Source: an uncultured delta proteobacterium (GTDB lineage: Bacteria > Desulfobacterota > Syntrophobacteria > Syntrophobacterales > Syntrophobacteraceae). From it: a stretch of 64,000 bases of DNA. The notes under the pieces were generated by a model that was not told the DNA's origin, searched no databases, and was given only the letters and a program-made list of their open reading frames with translations. Position 1 is the stretch's first letter. Each line of letters starts with the position of its first letter. The translations under genes were made by a program, and so were the position numbers. Shown here piece after piece: positions 47,247 to 57,864 of this stretch. The stretch is from NCBI GenBank assembly GCA_963808625.1, contig CAWEHK010000041.1, forward strand, positions 55,853-119,852. Reading direction: 5' to 3'.

Positions 47247-48618
47247 ATGTCCAGAAGACCTTTTCTTTGCTTCGTTATCCTGCTTCTCGCGGCGGTCCTT
47301 TCCCTGTCCTTTGCCGGAGACGGGATGGGAGTCGAACCCGGTGCCGGCAAGAAAACAACGGTAAAGCCCGGTCGGGGAAAGGCAAGACCTGAGAGGCAAG
47401 CACCGGAAAAGGCTGGTGCAGCGGATAAAGCTCCGGGAAAAGGGCGCGTCCGAGTCCTCGCCGGGTGAAATCAGCGCCAGGGCAGCCATTCTGTTGGATG
47501 TTGCCACGGGAACGGTTCTATTCGAACAAAATGCCGACGAACTGGTCGAGCCGGCATCATTCACCAAGGTCTTGTCGCTTTATCTGATTTTCGAGGCCCT
47601 TCAGCGTGGGACCATCCGGATTCAGGACGACGTCTATATCAGCGACCAGGCCTGGCGTACCAAAGGTTCCAAGATGTTTGTCGGGGTCAACACCAGGGTG
47701 CCGCTGGAAGAGCTGCTCAAGGGCATCGCCGTGGTGTCCGGGAACGATGCCTGCGTTGCCGCAGCCGAGCACCTTTCCGGGAGCACCGAGGCATTCGTCG
47801 ACAATATGAACCGCAAAGCGAAGCAACTGGGCATGGAACGCAGCCATTTCCTGAACCCTCACGGTCTGCCGGCTGACGGGCAGATCACCACCGCAAGAGA
47901 CATGGCCACCCTCGGGGCCGCTTACATCCGCCAATTCCCTGAAGCCCTTCGCTACCATTCCATGAGGGAATACACCTACAACAATATCACGCAATACAAT
48001 CGCAACCATTTGCTTAACAAAGACCCCTCGGTGGATGGTCTCAAGACCGGTTTTATCGATGCTTCCGGCTACCATCTGGCAGCCACGGCCCAGCGCGAAG
48101 GCATGCGGCTGCTGGCCGTGGTGATGGGAGCGGCAACCCCGCGCATCCGTGAACGGGAAGCCATGAAGCTGTTGAATTTTGGCTTCCGCTACTATGCCAT
48201 GGTCCAACCCTTTCCCGACGGGCAACCAGTGACCACGATCAAGATCTGGAAAGGCGAAAAAGATGAAATTGGCCTTTATCCCGCAGAGATGGCTGCCTTT
48301 GTCATACCCCGGCAGCAGAAGAACCTGCTCCGCTGGGAAGTGCGCACCGCCAATGATGTGACGGCACCAATTCAGATCAAACAGCCTTTGGGAGAAGTCG
48401 TTTTTTATGTCTCTGATCAGCCGCGGCGAAATGTTACGCTGGTCAGCCAGGAGGATGTAAACCAGGCGGGGTGGTTCAAACGAACGTGGCAAACGCTGCT
48501 CCAGATCCACAAACTGGATTGGCGGTGGTTCGCCGGCATCGCTGGCGGCATTGCCCTGGTCCTGGTAATCTTTTTCCTTATCTCGAACCGCCGTACCCTA
48601 CTCAAGCGACCGCGGTAA
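47247..48618 (+). CDS. dacA: D-alanyl-D-alanine carboxypeptidase (PBP5/6 family; frameshift near 5' end)
   Basis: PASFTK (SxxK), SGNDA (SxN), DGLKTG, C-terminal TM. Confidence 0.92.
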
Positions 48619-48963
48619 CCTGCCGGTCCCGCAACCGTGCTTACGTGGGTTTTATACCTCTTTCGGCTGAAATGCTTCGCTTTGAATGAGTCGAAATCCA
48701 CAGCAGAGACGCAGAGAGCGCAGAGAAAAACCACGAATCCAAATGCTCTGCGTACTCTGCGTCTCTGCTCCGAAAAGTCATGGTGGGCAGGCCACCTTCA
48801 AAGACCGACTCGGTTTTGGAAACCGAGTCGGTCTGGTCGCTACCGTAAAGCTTTTTATGTGTCTTCGCGTGTCCCGAAGGGACATGAGGGACTAATGGTG
48901 AAAGAGAAGGATTTAAGCCTTCAAGCGGAAATGTAGAGGTGTTGCTCAGTAGACGAAAATTGC

Positions 48964-49122
48964 CTAATGATCGGGCTTCGAGATTGGCTTTTTCTTCGTG
49001 GGATCTCCGACCCCACAGGCAGCAGACATTCAGGTAGGTACTCCGAGCCTGGGGAGGACCCAGCGATTCAAAATCACCCAGACTGCCAGCGCACCCGCAA
49101 TAAGAATCAAGTCCCAGGACAT
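48964..49122 (-). CDS. Candidate small membrane selenoprotein (52 aa, U31), absent from the ORF track
   Basis: GGAG RBS 8 nt before ATG; MSWDLILIAGALAVWVILNRWVLPRLGVPT-UGA-MSAACGVGDPTKKKPISKPDH*; SECIS-like hairpin after the UGA. Confidence 0.72.
48998..49016 (-). promoter_or_regulatory. Putative bacterial SECIS element
   Basis: GUGGGGUC-GGA-GAUCCCAC, 8-bp stem starting 13 nt after the UGA at 49030-49032. Confidence 0.65.
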
Positions 49123-49198
49123 TCATGCTACTCCACGTTCAGGGTTTCGTTGCAGCTCTTTCAGACCTTCTCAACGAAGGCCTCAACCTTGAAAGGCC

Positions 49199-49213
49199 AC
49201 GGCAACCTGCCGC
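49199..49213 (-). promoter_or_regulatory. Putative bacterial SECIS element
   Basis: GCGGCA-GGU-UGCCGU starting 13 nt after the UGA at 49227-49229. Confidence 0.65.
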
Positions 49214-49220
49214 CGCTTGA

Positions 49221-49433
49221 TCAGGCTCAGCCGAACCCCGTTGTCGGCCGCGGCTGACAGCTCGATCCGGCCCCGCCGGTGCGACCGGACGCCATCGAAC
49301 AGACTGATAAGATACGCTCCAGATCGCTGCTGCAGCACTTGGGGCATGATGTAATCTCTTCTGTTGCCGAAGTGAGGACGAGAGTTTCAAATTCCGTGTC
49401 ACAACACTTACACCGATACTCATAGATGGGCAT
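49221..49433 (-). CDS. FmdB-family zinc-ribbon protein, probably extended by Sec to ...GFG-U-A*
   Basis: MPIYEYRCKCC..EFE.L......CPKC.S..LER; ends GGC TGA GCC TGA with a downstream hairpin. Confidence 0.85.
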
Positions 49434-49622
49434 TTGGCTCTCTCCCTTTTCTGGTCTGAATCGTCATTCATCCGATACAGCAATCCGCCCCGACTCGAAT
49501 TCTCATCATAAATTAATCATAGCCCATCGAAAAAGCAATTGAGGTGGGGTGTAGTCAGAAGTGGGAGTTCGCCGTGGCCTCATGTGACCATTACCTGATT
49601 GCGAATGAGCCTGCATGGTTTC

Positions 49623-49697
49623 GGTGGGCGCAAAAAGACGCGCCCACCCTACGCCGTGGCCCAATTGTAGGGTGGGCACAGCTTTACCGTGCCCACC
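49623..49697. repeat. Doublet of GTAG-type REP palindromes, copy 2
   Basis: Inverted relative of 40932-41018 with a different spacer. Confidence 0.88.
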
Positions 49698-49855
49698 AGG
49701 ACAGGAGACCCTGCCTTTCAGTAATTTCCAACTCCCACTTCTGTTCACACCCATTCAGGTGGGATGACGCTCTCCAAGTTGACAATATGGGCTATAATCC
49801 TTAAAGGAAGCCACACCGAAACGGCGGTGAATCGTTCTAAGAGAAGGAGTTCCCC

Positions 49856-50740
49856 ATGAAACCATGCGATGCCAAGTCATGTGAAGGCTGCTCAGACAAG
49901 GAAAAGCGGTCCAGAGAGCAGCTAGTTCACTGTAATCTATTGAGGATAAAGCATAAATTGCTTGTGATGAGCGGCAAGGGAGGGGTTGGGAAAAGCAGTG
50001 TTGCTGCCTATCTGGCCCTGACGCTGGCCAAGCAGGGCTATCAGGTTGGAATCCTGGACGTGGACCTTCATGGTCCCAGCATCCCTAAGATGCTCGGCCT
50101 CCATGGGGCTCTCGACATTGCGCCTGACAACCAGATTGTCCCGCAAGAGTACAGCCCCAACCTTAAAGTAGTCTCGATTGAGTCGATGTTGGAAGATACC
50201 GATTCCGCGGTCATCTGGCGTGGTCCTTTGAAACACGGTGTCATCCAGCAATTCCTGGCTGACTGCAAGTGGGATGACCTTGATTTTCTGGTTATCGACA
50301 GCCCGCCGGGAACGGGGGATGAACCCTTGAGCGTCGCGCGGCTCATCCCCGAAGCCAAAGCGATCATCGTCACTACGCCCCAAGAAGTGGCGCTCGCCGA
50401 TGTCAGGAAATCCATCAACTTCTGTCGCAAGGTGAAACTCAGTATTGTGGGTCTTGTGGAAAACATGTCCGGCCTGCATTGCCCTCACTGTCAGGGTTTT
50501 ATTCCGATCTTTCGCACCGGTGGCGGCAAGAAAACGGCAGAGCGAATGAAATTGCCCTTCCTGGGCTCCCTGCCATTTGATCCCGCCGTTGTGGAGGGCG
50601 GTGATCGTGGGCGACCCGTCCTGGAAAACGACACGGATACTCCGTTCAAAGAGGCGCTGCAGGAATTTGCTGAGGCGGTGTTGAAAAACCTCAAAATGTC
50701 CGAACAGGTCGTGGCGCCGGAGGGGAAGACCGTTCATTGA
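49856..50740 (+). CDS. Mrp/ApbC/NBP35 Fe-S cluster carrier ATPase
   Basis: SGKGGVGKS, DVDLHGPS, IWRGP, DSPPGTGD, ENMS...CPHC. Confidence 0.95.
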   Translation: MKPCDAKSCEGCSDKEKRSREQLVHCNLLRIKHKLLVMSGKGGVGKSSVAAYLALTLAKQGYQVGILDVDLHGPSIPKMLGLHGALDIAPDNQIVPQEYSPNLKVVSIESMLEDTDSAVIWRGPLKHGVIQQFLADCKWDDLDFLVIDSPPGTGDEPLSVARLIPEAKAIIVTTPQEVALADVRKSINFCRKVKLSIVGLVENMSGLHCPHCQGFIPIFRTGGGKKTAERMKLPFLGSLPFDPAVVEGGDRGRPVLENDTDTPFKEALQEFAEAVLKNLKMSEQVVAPEGKTVH

Positions 50741-51944: not shown

Positions 51945-52484
51945 CTAAGCGCCCTCTTCTTGTTCCTGGAATGCCTGGATGGCATCCGGAATCAGTTTCC
52001 TGACGAAGCCCCCGCGGTCCTCTACGAAAACCTCCTGATATTCAGGATATCGGGGGTGAGACTGAAGAAGTCGAGGAGTCTGGTTTTTCATCCCTGAATA
52101 AACAGTTGAAAAACGTTCGACCAGGTCCAAAAGGGGAACAAGGCAGAAGGGAGAAGGCTCAACCCAGCCAAGGCGTCTCATGACTTCGAAGCGCAGTTGA
52201 TCGAGTAAAAACAGCGAGGTATCCATCACCTCGAGTCTCACCCGGCTCTCCAGCTCGAAAAATGTAGCGCCTTTGCCGAGTCCCAGGAATCCCATGATCA
52301 GGCCATAGAGCAACAGGGATGGGCCTTCTTCGTGTTGAATCAGAGTCCGGAGCGCGGTGTCGCCGAGGTCTACAACGCAGGTCTGTTCGTCGAATGAATC
52401 GGAAAAACGCCTGGTCCAGGTTTCAAAGCCCCGTTTTGCTACCAGGCGCCGCCGTTGTTGCTGCAGGTCCAAAATCACCGCCAT
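51945..52484 (-). CDS. Hypothetical protein
   Basis: 179 aa, AGGAG RBS, LDQLRFEVMRRLGWV. Confidence 0.75.
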   Translation of the reverse strand: MAVILDLQQQRRRLVAKRGFETWTRRFSDSFDEQTCVVDLGDTALRTLIQHEEGPSLLLYGLIMGFLGLGKGATFFELESRVRLEVMDTSLFLLDQLRFEVMRRLGWVEPSPFCLVPLLDLVERFSTVYSGMKNQTPRLLQSHPRYPEYQEVFVEDRGGFVRKLIPDAIQAFQEQEEGA

Positions 52485-52559: not shown

Positions 52560-54050
52560 CTAAAAGATGTCTGCTGAAAATACATACAAGTCGGTGTCTT
52601 TCTCCTTCCAGGCGGCCGGAGGCAGCGAGGCTTTCCGGCAGGTCGCCTCGAGGAATTCGTTGCGATCCCAGCCCTGGTCGGTCGCCACTTGCGGAAGAAG
52701 CAAACCGGAATGGGACTTCTTGCGGACCAGCAGTCCGTGTTTGCCGATTTCAATCTGCGAGGCGTCCTTGATCCGCTGCATGGGAGTCAGCACCGAAATC
52801 TCGAGGTCGAGATCATCCAACTCGCCAGGGTCCAAAGGACAAAAGCGGGGATCGCCAAAAGCTGCCTGAATCGCCATTTCTCTCACGGTTTGATACAGCG
52901 GGCCGAAGCCATCGATCATCCCGATGCATCCCCTGAGGTCCTTTCCCTTGTGCAGGCAAACGAAGGCACCCCGTTCCTCTTTCAGTATTGGGGTCAGAGG
53001 GGGAAGCGCCGGCATTGGCTGTTTCAGGCATTTGCTGCGGATAGCCTGGAGGGCAATCGCGCGCAGGGTTTTCTTTTCTTCAGGCGAAAGCCCGAGGTCA
53101 ATGGCAGCCTCGTGTCTTTTCGGGGATGGCTGGTCGCTCGTTCTTCCGGGATTGTCAAGAAACGCCGCGGCCATGTATCCTACTACCCCCTGCAGGTCCC
53201 CGGTCACGTCGCCGGAATTCGCATATTGAAGGACCTGGGCCTTAGTTGCCCCCAGCTTCTGAGCGGCAAGCATGAGCGTTACCATCGGTCCGCCGCCGCA
53301 GGCTTCGCACATTCCTTTCTCGATGGCTGCCGCAAGACCTGCGGGATCAAAGGCCGAGACCCGATCGAGCACGACCTGGTCGAGGCGCTTGGCCTCCCGG
53401 TAGGGGTGGTAATGGGAAAGATCGGAACTGGCTATCAGCAGCACCCGTTTCCCAGCGCACACGTGGGCAATGGCGTCCGCTAATTCCTGACAGGATTTGA
53501 AGGAGTGGTCCCCGATGAGAATGGGGATGAGTCGAAATTCGGCAAGAACCACCTGCAAAAAGGGTAGCTGTATTTCCAGCGAATGTTCCTGAGCTTCGGC
53601 TCGAGGAACATAATCGCAGAGCGAAGACTGCCCGCACAGAGAGTCGATCAGCTCGTGATCAAGAGGAACGATTCCCAGAGGGGTGCGGTATCCGCCGAGC
53701 CGGTAGACACTGGCGCCCTGGAAATGGGCCCGATGGCTGGGAGCAAGGATCAGCACGCGGTCGAAGGCTTGTTGGCGGAGGGTTTTGTCAGCGTGCGCGG
53801 CATCTTGATGGTTGATGGTTGATGGTTGATGGTTGATAGGTTGTTGGCGCAGGGTTTTGTAGGCGTGCGCGGCAACCCCGCCCGAATAGAGGTAGCCGGC
53901 GTGGGGCACAATGAGGCCAACCAGAGTGCCTTGCATCGAAGGAAGCCGGGCCTCATCGAGGTACTTACCGATCTGCTTTTTCAACACCTCGGGCTGGTCG
54001 GGATACCACGTCCCGGCGATGACCGACTCGCGGACCTTTTCTTGTGCCAT
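52560..54050 (-). CDS. AmmeMemoRadiSam protein B (MEMO1) fused to protein A (AMMECR1)
   Basis: AGTWYP, PHAGYLYSG, EHSLEIQLPFLQ, SSDLSHY, CGGGP, VVGY; GAFVCL, LRGCIG, DPRF, ISVLT, GLLLPQVA. Confidence 0.94.
   Translation of the reverse strand: MAQEKVRESVIAGTWYPDQPEVLKKQIGKYLDEARLPSMQGTLVGLIVPHAGYLYSGGVAAHAYKTLRQQPINHQPSTINHQDAAHADKTLRQQAFDRVLILAPSHRAHFQGASVYRLGGYRTPLGIVPLDHELIDSLCGQSSLCDYVPRAEAQEHSLEIQLPFLQVVLAEFRLIPILIGDHSFKSCQELADAIAHVCAGKRVLLIASSDLSHYHPYREAKRLDQVVLDRVSAFDPAGLAAAIEKGMCEACGGGPMVTLMLAAQKLGATKAQVLQYANSGDVTGDLQGVVGYMAAAFLDNPGRTSDQPSPKRHEAAIDLGLSPEEKKTLRAIALQAIRSKCLKQPMPALPPLTPILKEERGAFVCLHKGKDLRGCIGMIDGFGPLYQTVREMAIQAAFGDPRFCPLDPGELDDLDLEISVLTPMQRIKDASQIEIGKHGLLVRKKSHSGLLLPQVATDQGWDRNEFLEATCRKASLPPAAWKEKDTDLYVFSADIF
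53769..53874. repeat. Heptamer tract flanked by a 34-bp direct duplication inside the CDS
   Basis: 53769-53802 and 53841-53874 match 31/34; TTGATGG x4 plus TTGATAG lie between. Confidence 0.92.
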
Positions 54051-54134
54051 GTGAGACCCTCCCCTAATCCATCTTGTGATCTTCAAGGCAAAGGATGGTC
54101 ATGGGCTCCCCTTGCACTGAAAGGGATTGATGAA

Positions 54135-55832: not shown

Positions 55833-57864
55833 ATGCGAACAGAGCAGGGTGGACTTCATCTCGAGAGGCGACGTACGGCAATGTTTCCGATGGAACCTTC
55901 GCAGTCTCGCAATATTAATGGGATTACCATCCTGGGGCCTGATTTTTCTGCCAGGGACCGGGACGGCAAACCTCTGAGTCCCATAGCCGTCATTTTCCCA
56001 AAGCTGCTCTTGCTGGTAACGGGGCGTGGCATCCATGCCGAGTTGGTGGTGAGGGGGGAGGAATTCCTGCGTGCCAAGCTGCGCGAAACCGAGAAGCGCG
56101 ACCTGACCGCAGAAGAAGAGGAGGAAATCTATGAGAACGTGGTTTCTCTCCTGACGAGGGATGCGACCGTTCTCATCCGTTCGTATCCGGACGATATGGA
56201 AAGGGTCTTTGCCGCGGATGAGCTTCTCCAGAGGTTCTTGCCGAAGGAATGCATTCAGTTTACCGGGGTCCACATCGCCGAAGTTCGGGCCCAACTGAGG
56301 AAGCGAGGTGAAAACTGGAGGATTGCACCACCGCCGCGCTCGGCCAGGGAGATCTGTCAGCATATCAGCGCCAGCCGGGTTCAGGTTAAAACCGGGACGA
56401 CCTACTATCAAAATGCACAAAGCGGAGAACGGTTTCTCACCTACGAGGAATTCATCCGGATTCGCCCCCTCCTGCGGCAAGCAGCAGGGGAAGCTCGCGC
56501 CCGGCTGCGAGAGATCGACCACCTGAGCCGTCTGGTCAACGACCAGGGAGTGCCGGAGCTGAGCTTCTTCGTTCCCGCGAAAAGAAGGTTGGCCACAAAA
56601 CTTCTCGAAGATCTCCTGCTGGTGCTGGAGGATGATGTCTCGCAGCAGGCTTCCGAGCGAGCTGAGGACCTCTTTGACCACTTTGCAATGTCCTTTGCCG
56701 AAACGGCTGGCGAAGAACTTACCGTGGATGGTGAAAAACACACTACCTGGCAGACGACCATGTTTTGCCGTCTGTATGACCTTGACGAGGAGCTTGTCGA
56801 AGAACGGACACTGGGGCTCAGCCCGGAATTTCATCTGAATGTGAGATGGCTCCCCGGGGCACACCTCGAAGAAAACGAGGTCACCTTTGAAGCAAAGGCA
56901 GGACCCAGGGTGCGCAGCCTCATCGCATACTTTCTGCAAACGTGGCCTGGGATTGTCTCGATTAACATCGGCCGGGTCGAATCCTCCCTTACGGACAGAG
57001 ACCGAACGGGGGAGGAGCGGGAAGTTTATCTGGTGGTTTTGGGCCTGCCGCAAGGGGGAGAGGAGATTCGCCTGCTGCGCCTGATGAAATGGGATGTGGT
57101 CCATCGCCTCAAGCAAGGGCTTCCGCTGAACCAGGCCATTAGTGATACGATCCGTTACCGCGACTACGTCCTTGACCGTCTCAAGGCTACCGCTGCCCTC
57201 GAACATCCCCATTCTTTCCTACACCGCGATTCAGTTTACAGAAGAACTCCAGGACTTCGGTGAAATCCCTGTTTTCTTTTTCGACCGCCGCTACGTGACG
57301 GGCATGGTGAGCGACAAAATTCCTCTTCCTTATTATGCGAAAAAAGGCTTTGTGGTCCGTCTGGCCCGCCTGCTTGGCGCTGCCGCTGCGGCCAGCATGG
57401 TTTTGGGAAGGGCCAGCTATCGCCGGGGTGACCTCTTCTTCGATGATGGCGATGAAGTCATTCAGTTGGATGCGGAGAAACTTCCCGAGCGGCTGGTCAT
57501 TTCCGAGACAACCGGGTCGTTCACGAATTCGACCACTCCCATATCGGAACTTCTGCCGCAGTGTCTGAGCCACCTTGCAGTTCATCTGAAGAAGGCTTGC
57601 GAGCGGGGGATTTCGCGGGACGACCTGAGGGCTGGAGTCGCGGTTTTTTGCGAAGCTTTGGGAGCCGAGATCGAGCGAATGCAGTCACTCTCAAAAAGTC
57701 CGTCTGGTGCCCTGCAGTCCCTCTTCGAGGCGCAAACATCCGAACCGGGCTCGATTCGGGCACGGTGGCAGAGCATGCTGGACCGGCTTGAAGCGACCGA
57801 CGTCAAGGAGCTGAAACGCGCCGCTTTCGCGAGCCCGCACCTGGCTGCCTTCTTCGATCCCTGA
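55833..57864 (+). CDS. Large hypothetical protein (about 675 aa; frameshift near 57205)
   Basis: Two long overlapping ORFs (476 and 240 aa) with natural composition; no family recognised. Confidence 0.75.

Follow-up and report, generated by a model that had tools for sequence, protein, structure and literature searches.

The 64,000-nt stretch of DNA analysed here (the window), from an uncultured member of the Syntrophobacteraceae, carries on its minus strand two consecutive small genes that appear to encode selenoproteins through ordinary bacterial decoding. Gene 1 would encode an FmdB-family zinc-ribbon protein with selenocysteine (Sec) as its penultimate residue, and gene 2 a one-helix membrane peptide with a U-x4-C motif. 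As judged from sequence comparison, the assignment is nearly certain for gene 2 and very probable for gene 1. It is strongly supported because the genome encodes Sec machinery, the TGA is invariant among homologs, the reading beyond the UGA is conserved, the downstream hairpins covary, and gene 2 has Cys forms. In both genes, SelB would bind the G-loop hairpin directly past the UGA, leading to Sec insertion. The original prediction had placed in-frame UGAs at 49227-49229 and 49030-49032 and proposed a zinc-ribbon selenoprotein paired with a membrane-anchored one; the UGAs are present there, and the homologs strongly support selenoprotein status. The two genes represent two uncatalogued selenoprotein types, although the recoding mechanism itself is already known.

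Gene 1 (49221-49433, minus strand, ATG side at 49433) encodes 70 aa on read-through and matches the FmdB models TIGR02605 (52.5 bits, cut-off 31.3) and PF09723 (51.1 bits). The protein has two CxxC motifs followed by a Ser/Gly linker, Cys59, and an F-G-U-A end. Its 3' end reads F-G-UGA-Ala-UGA in frame, with the putative Sec codon at residue 69 (49227-49229) and the final stop at 49221-49223. A Shine-Dalgarno-like AGGGAG lies 8 nt 5' of the ATG (49442-49447). The predicted structure consists of a zinc ribbon plus a disordered tail, and a fold search with this model gave no match at E ≤ 0.001. The four ribbon Cys were invariant in 41 aligned proteins, and the Sec at residue 69 lies outside the ribbon.

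Gene 1 homologs were the zinc-ribbon proteins at the collected loci, classed by their ending at the first stop of any kind, and the controls were 3617 ORFs of at least 200 aa from the same genome, spurious frames included, of which 2051 end in TGA, the commonest stop of this genome. Homolog counts are overstated throughout, since related loci are not independent. The first stop was TGA in all 139 zinc ribbons with an F-x ending, whereas 43% of the control ORFs end otherwise. A second stop followed one to two codons past the UGA in 138/139 homologs (one codon between the stops in 96, two in 42) versus 120/2051 control TGA stops, and this second stop was TGA in 62 homologs, TAA in 42 and TAG in 35. 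A Cys was found within the last 14 residues of 137/139, and a G-loop hairpin followed the UGA in 129/139 versus 107/2051 controls. The remaining 34 FmdB-type proteins comprised 20 that stop at TAA or TAG without a hairpin and 14 that stop at TGA, nine of these with a hairpin.

Direct Cys orthologs of gene 1 (F-x-C form) were found at 0/139 loci and in 0/120 proteins, the latter being the best 120 of 683 matches; 112 of these 120 end at F-x, including Desulfacinum infernum and Desulfosoma caldarium records. Many FmdB-type paralogs end in CxxC-His and thus have a penultimate Cys, and a few paralogs carry a candidate Sec in Cys-rich tails of that kind (L327, L344, L357). These tails, which are not firmly alignable with gene 1, suggest a possible origin of the gene 1 tail. 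In one of them (L344), the Sec would lie inside a CxxC of the Cys-rich tail. FmdB zinc ribbons with a UGA plus hairpin but other tails, presumably more Sec variants of the family, also occurred at L335, L353, L370 and L132, in addition to these three loci. The genome itself has five more FmdB-type zinc ribbons (contigs C14, C21, C25, C48, C54), none of which has an F-x-UGA end.

Gene 2 (48964-49122, minus strand) encodes a 52-aa single-helix membrane protein with the pattern W..LNRW.LP.LG..T-U-x4-C and a basic unstructured tail. The hydrophobic helix is followed by L-P-R-L-G-V-P-T-UGA-M-S-A-A-C and the tail, which ends with a TAG at 48964; the putative Sec codon is residue 31 (49030-49032). 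A Shine-Dalgarno-like GGAG precedes the ATG by 8 nt (49131-49134), and a terminator-like stem with a T run lies 3' of the gene (48782-48796), a weak site identified by consensus match only (three sites found versus 1.6 expected). The best 19-residue hydropathy was 2.12, and the predicted structure (pLDDT 74) showed one helix over the hydrophobic part and a tail without order. Based on the acidic N-terminus, the basic residues past the helix and the positive-inside rule, the U-x4-C probably lies beside the membrane on its cytoplasmic face. The eukaryotic selenoproteins SELENOK and SELENOS have one membrane helix, with Sec in an unstructured cytosolic part near the C-terminus and a eukaryotic SECIS in the 3' UTR. 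They serve as a works-like lead for gene 2 only, with no sequence relationship implied; the Sec of gene 2 would lie ~9 residues past the helix.

With a single query, gene 2 matched 54/61 near genomes and 159/401 genomes of the phylum. Among 150 of the 163 phylum matches, 149 contain the TGA and the remaining one ends just ahead of its TGA. A scan of named genomes gave 319 loci, led by Syntrophobacteraceae records; the best 80 included 19 Planctomycetota, one Bryobacteraceae and one Leptospirales record. Pooling the near-genome, phylum and named-genome matches with 60 hand-picked diverse regions yielded 176 distinct loci, of which 175 had TGA and one (L234) had TGC at the Sec position. The first Cys after the UGA was at +5 in 150 of these loci, at +6 in 16, at another place in three and absent in seven, versus only 61/2051 control TGA stops with a Cys at +5. 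In 37 loci, the third base alone of the +5 Cys codon varies. A G-loop hairpin was present in 148/176 loci versus 107/2051 controls, and 28/176 failed the hairpin rule. The reading frame stayed open for at least 11 codons past the UGA in 176/176 loci; however, 1414/2051 control stops were equally open, so this is weak as standalone evidence. In two families (L115, L117, L119, L120, L121, L147), gene 2 variants have U-G-x-P and lack a Cys at both +5 and +6.

A profile search with gene 2 found 1896 representative proteins at E ≤ 0.001. In 146 examined proteins, the Sec position was occupied by Cys in 113, by Trp in 23 and by another residue in seven, while two ended there and one was a repeat artefact. 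The Trp forms probably reflect TGA read under another code. The Cys forms had a second Cys at +5 in 100 of 113 cases, and one Cys form was confirmed in DNA by the TGC at L234. Another (P0266) is fused to thioredoxin. The Cys/UGA alternation anticipated for both genes holds for gene 2; for gene 1, no direct Cys form turned up in the 139 loci and 120 proteins. No Pfam or NCBIfam family scored above cut-off for the window protein or for 15 Cys forms in both libraries, or for 59 Sec forms in NCBIfam. A single ESM Atlas cluster (123 hypothetical proteins, score 0.88) is a lead only.

Both UGAs are followed by a hairpin with a G-led 3-nt loop, as predicted. The gene 1 hairpin (49199-49213, minus strand) has a 6-bp stem (arms 49213-49208/49204-49199) and the loop GGU, and lies in the 3' untranslated region. 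The gene 2 hairpin (48997-49017, minus strand) has a 9-bp stem (arms 49017-49009/49005-48997) and the loop GGA, and lies within the coding sequence. Scored by our own hairpin rule, both satisfy the bacterial SECIS (bSECIS) model as described in the published text available to us, i.e., a small loop with G at position 1-2, 16-37 nt past the UGA, and a 4-16 bp stem (PMC13188914). The hairpins had been thought to start exactly 13 nt past the UGA in both genes, which is correct for gene 1 and applies to gene 2 only without a terminal U-G pair (12 nt counting it). The identical spacing is a coincidence, since the UGA-to-loop distance is 19 nt in gene 1 and 21 nt in gene 2, and ranges from 15 to 26 nt among homologs. 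The hairpins exceed chance: when the two window segments were base-shuffled, hairpins of -7 kcal/mol or lower under our rule arose in 47/1000 cases for gene 1 and 6/1000 for gene 2.

Among distinct homolog hairpins, stem pairs 2-6 were formed in 92-96% for gene 1 (n = 134, with four to six pair types each) and in 87-92% for gene 2 (n = 153). For the gene 2 stem, the expected pairing was 40-43% by column make-up and 47-53% at control stops with the same anchoring; these comparisons carry the caveat that anchoring chooses the best loop and that kin are not independent. The residues encoded within the gene 2 hairpin differ across lineages while the pairing is retained.

The genome encodes SelA (621 bits), SelB (384 bits) and SelD (372 bits) above curated cut-offs, and its selD has an in-frame TGA followed by a hairpin. 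The remaining component, selC (tRNA-Sec), was not found in the 84.6% complete assembly using the Rfam model, ARAGORN with normal and lowered thresholds, a pattern search, and BLAST with relatives' genes; a 77-nt match above cut-off was rejected as tRNA-Trp. The assembly contains 39 tRNAs and also lacks tRNA-Tyr and tRNA-Ile, and 12/12 relatives have tRNA-Sec at 71-76 bits (three confirmed by ARAGORN as TCA). Given the completeness, these other missing tRNAs and the positive relatives, the absence of selC may be an assembly gap, an unproven reading. The Sec-machinery prediction thus held for selA, selB and selD, with selC not found in this assembly. Across the phylum, selA occurs in 377/401 genomes and is therefore useless as a presence contrast. 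The genome with the TGC form of gene 2 (L234) gave no selA or selB match. In five genomes with the TGA form, selA was not found, and selB was present in the three checked; three genomes with TGA forms (G100, G188, G166) that are 98-100% complete had selB without a selA match, two of them with atypical gene 2 tails. Neither selA nor selB was matched in one Planctomycetota genome that carries a TGA form.

If the UGAs were genuine stops, gene 1 would encode a zinc ribbon of 68 aa and gene 2 a membrane peptide of 30 aa, each with a stabilising hairpin behind it, and gene 2 would be followed by a coupled TGA-ATG micro-ORF. This reading matches the database entries for both genes, is in keeping with TGA being the commonest genomic stop and with the missing selC, and fits gene 1 having no direct Cys ortholog among the homologs examined. 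Nevertheless, it is highly improbable. No swap to TAA or TAG occurred in 139 + 175 loci, whereas the stop behind gene 1 varies freely. The Cys forms of gene 2 translate straight across the UGA position, and the hairpins retain a G-led loop at SECIS distance without a T run. The coupled micro-ORF was rejected, as the codon past the gene 2 UGA is often a non-start (Leu, Ile, Ala, Gly, Val, Thr, Ser). Selenoprotein decoding is thus the preferred reading for both genes, consistent with the conservation found past the UGA (the +5 Cys of gene 2 and the nearby second stop of gene 1) and in the hairpins.

Genes 1 and 2 lie on the same strand, separated by a 98-nt gap without a terminator-like site. 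In the own order of this bacterium, gene 1 was located at most 300 nt upstream of gene 2 in 31/38 loci, which had been picked by gene 2 alone. Because of the shared strand, the short gap, the lack of a terminator-like site and this conserved order, the two genes likely form an operon in this genome, as had been suggested. RNA runs contained only small shares, from other organisms; a 246-nt contig of a relative spans 49043-49229 over the intergenic gap but cannot demonstrate a transcript. In two further own-order loci, gene 1 was 1.1 kb from gene 2 with a CDF (cation-efflux) gene between. The CDF gene between the pair was found at L037 and L216, the same ~1.1-kb spacing occurred at L040, L218 and L227, and a CMD/AhpD-like gene preceded gene 1 at L216 and L227.

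Adjacency of the pair was common within the order and much less frequent beyond it. Cultured carriers of the pair include Desulfacinum infernum, Desulfacinum hydrothermale and Desulfoferrobacter suflitae. The pair was adjacent in 13/77 other Desulfobacterota loci (apart in 64/77) and in 0/20 Planctomycetota/Acidobacteriota loci. Adjacency outside the order occurred in at least seven families, with gene 1 upstream in three (f30, f34, f73) and downstream in four (f16, f18, f49, f103), two of the latter coming from loci picked by gene 1. The link therefore recurs but is not obligate, and an obligate two-selenoprotein operon is contradicted by these counts. At two loci (L113, L204), the run was ArsR, gene 2, a small Cys-rich ORF, gene 1 and thioredoxin, with CcdA added at L204. 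A small four-Cys ORF with no Pfam match lies between genes 2 and 1 in two families (L204, L113, L152, L168). The same ORF was also listed for L202, L291, L292, L322, L338 and L355, with one extra match at L138 and none in the own genome.

The fixed neighbours of the pair in this genome and its order are a divergent Mrp/ApbC (NBP35-type) Fe-S carrier ATPase (49856-50740, plus strand, profile match), present in 28/117 loci, and a convergent D-Ala-D-Ala carboxypeptidase (peptidase S11; 47416-48618, plus strand, profile match), which is context only and present in 36/117 loci. Both were found in close relatives only, and no thioredoxin is among the fixed neighbours. In other lineages, thiol and sulfur genes were found near gene 2. 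Genes for rhodanese, YgaP, persulfide-dioxygenase-like or metallo-beta-lactamase-rhodanese proteins, TauE or DsrE occurred in 10/17 Planctomycetota/Acidobacteriota loci (110 of 160 candidate ORFs scanned), a raw count, and an ArsR gene often accompanied gene 2 in those loci. In the other Desulfobacterota, with 206 of 303 candidate ORFs submitted, at least 17/77 loci had a thiol/sulfur neighbour (thioredoxin, TlpA, CcdA, Prx, OsmC, DsrE/DsrC, YgaP, a sulfur transporter or a disulfide oxidoreductase) and about 60/77 showed none among the ORFs submitted, again as raw counts.

Our best overall explanation, held at slightly better than even confidence, is that the pair are two selenoproteins of thiol/sulfane-sulfur redox that act in the same process, neither requiring the other as a neighbour. 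Given Sec insertion, we infer that it is fairly likely that both are thiol/sulfane-sulfur redox carriers re-reduced by thioredoxin. In each protein, a flexible segment would expose a pair of Sec and Cys: gene 2 would anchor its U-x4-C beside the membrane, and gene 1 would hold zinc with its two CxxC and present a swinging tail with a Cys 7-11 residues ahead of Sec. Both would alternate between a selenol/thiol form and a selenenylsulfide or persulfide form, with thioredoxin re-reducing them and a role in thiol and sulfane-sulfur homeostasis. In this genome, the two would be co-expressed in a shared process with no mutual need for adjacency.

Alternatively, the Sec/Cys pairs of both selenoproteins may ligate a soft metal or cluster or hand it on, together with Mrp/ApbC or metal transporters. 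This metal or Fe-S role, which we consider rather unlikely, stays alive because the fixed neighbours here are the divergent Mrp/ApbC gene and the peptidase; the CDF gene between the pair at two loci also points to it, as do the FeoB, NikR, MerR and arsenic genes that certain lineages have close to gene 2. However, the Mrp link is restricted to close relatives, on the opposite strand and 422 nt off, and more unrelated lineages show thiol/sulfane-sulfur neighbours. The gene 1 ribbon has a weak fold likeness to HypA (E 0.24), but this match is non-significant and limited to a generic ribbon. The two selenoproteins may also have unrelated jobs and be neighbours through ancestry or shared regulation alone, to which we assign a similarly low probability. 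Their separation in 64/77 loci beyond the order and in 20/20 Planctomycetota/Acidobacteriota loci is in line with this, as are an Acidobacteriota genome with the genes on separate contigs, four Planctomycetota genomes with gene 2 and no F-x-U zinc ribbon among the matches, and gene 1 types in genomes where the gene 2 query found nothing. The adjacency seen beyond the order in at least seven families, with either gene first, and the occurrence of both genes once within an ArsR-thioredoxin-CcdA operon argue instead for a shared process.

A redox or metal-transfer relay between the two proteins had been proposed as a possibility. Their separation in most loci outside the order speaks against it, and a direct hand-over between them is a doubtful prediction, though a possible one. 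Still more tentatively, a minimal selenium relay might run from thioredoxin (CcdA-fed or -drained) to the Cys...Sec tail of gene 1, from which electrons or sulfane sulfur would move on to the U-x4-C of gene 2. If true, this relay would provide the first activity for the large functionless FmdB family and the missing membrane carrier for persulfide-handling operons, and gene 2 would be a functional equivalent, in bacteria, of single-pass selenoproteins.

Compared with the bSECIS genes read by SelB, as described in the available text of that study (PMC13188914), genes 1 and 2 are alike in their in-frame UGA, 3-nt GG-led loop, 6-9 bp upper stem and selA/selB/selD, but the gene 1 hairpin sits past the stop codon, outside the coding sequence. 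Most selenoproteins catalogued there are much larger than these two proteins, neither of which has a thioredoxin fold. The catalogue of 119 families (2026) includes FmdB only as a UxxU form (TIGR02605, no accession) in its Table 1; in this table, which is without sequences, gene 2 has no recognisable entry and the gene 1 form is likewise unmatched (PMC13188914). In the accessible part of the GOS metagenome survey, two FmdB reads that contain CxxU share the family (TIGR02605/PF09723) and Sec use with gene 1 (PMC2398784). However, the Sec of those FmdB forms lies in CxxU/UxxU, whereas gene 1 retains both CxxC and has a penultimate Sec in an F-x-U-x tail found at 139 loci. SaoC, as presented in the available preprint text, is an earlier example of Sec at the terminus followed by a hairpin beyond the stop (bioRxiv 10.1101/2022.07.06.499078). 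Like gene 1, SaoC and KCU-star are small, with Sec at the end and a GGU-loop hairpin beyond the stop; they end in Cys-Sec, whereas gene 1 ends in Phe-x-Sec-x with its partner Cys 7-11 residues earlier and has no match to their models (bioRxiv 10.1101/2022.07.06.499078).

Reactive-sulfur operons, in the parts of the source available, combine ArsR-type SqrR/BigR sensors with persulfide dioxygenase, rhodanese, CoA-persulfide reductase and TauE (PMC13467558). These are the gene types that flank gene 2 in the 10/17 Planctomycetota/Acidobacteriota loci, although gene 2 is no described member of such operons in those parts and no such genes flank the pair here. Our literature search, whose coverage excluded subscription papers, found no description of the Sec form of either gene. 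According to the accessible text of each source, BSepDB contains previously reported selenoprotein families (PMC13326102) and deep-Sep may overlook proteins lacking Cys homologs (PMC12013277).

These results imply mis-annotation, across public databases, of two small genes that are very common among anaerobic bacteria. Standard gene callers had been expected to truncate gene 1 and miss gene 2. Both are indeed cut short, but gene 2 is not simply missed; public sets mostly hold it as a hypothetical protein of 26-37 aa cut at the UGA. Gene 2 extends to other phyla yet has no family model, and the proteins examined were mostly Cys or cut forms. Adding both families would raise the selenoprotein count by two in many sulfate reducers and syntrophs, and would point to a blind spot of catalogues for very short proteins and for Sec at most two residues from the end, where Cys-homolog filters fail. 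Both proteins are within peptide-synthesis length, so their chemistry is directly testable.

Elsewhere in the window, two ORFs of 476 aa (55833-57263, plus strand) and 179 aa (51945-52484, minus strand) had no significant Pfam or NCBIfam match. Imperfect palindromic, REP-like intergenic stretches at 48640-48900 and 49540-49760 also matched RNA-library contigs of other organisms. A gene at 52560-54086 on the minus strand encodes a fusion of AmmeMemoRadiSam B and A (Memo + AMMECR1) that contains a short repeated insertion.
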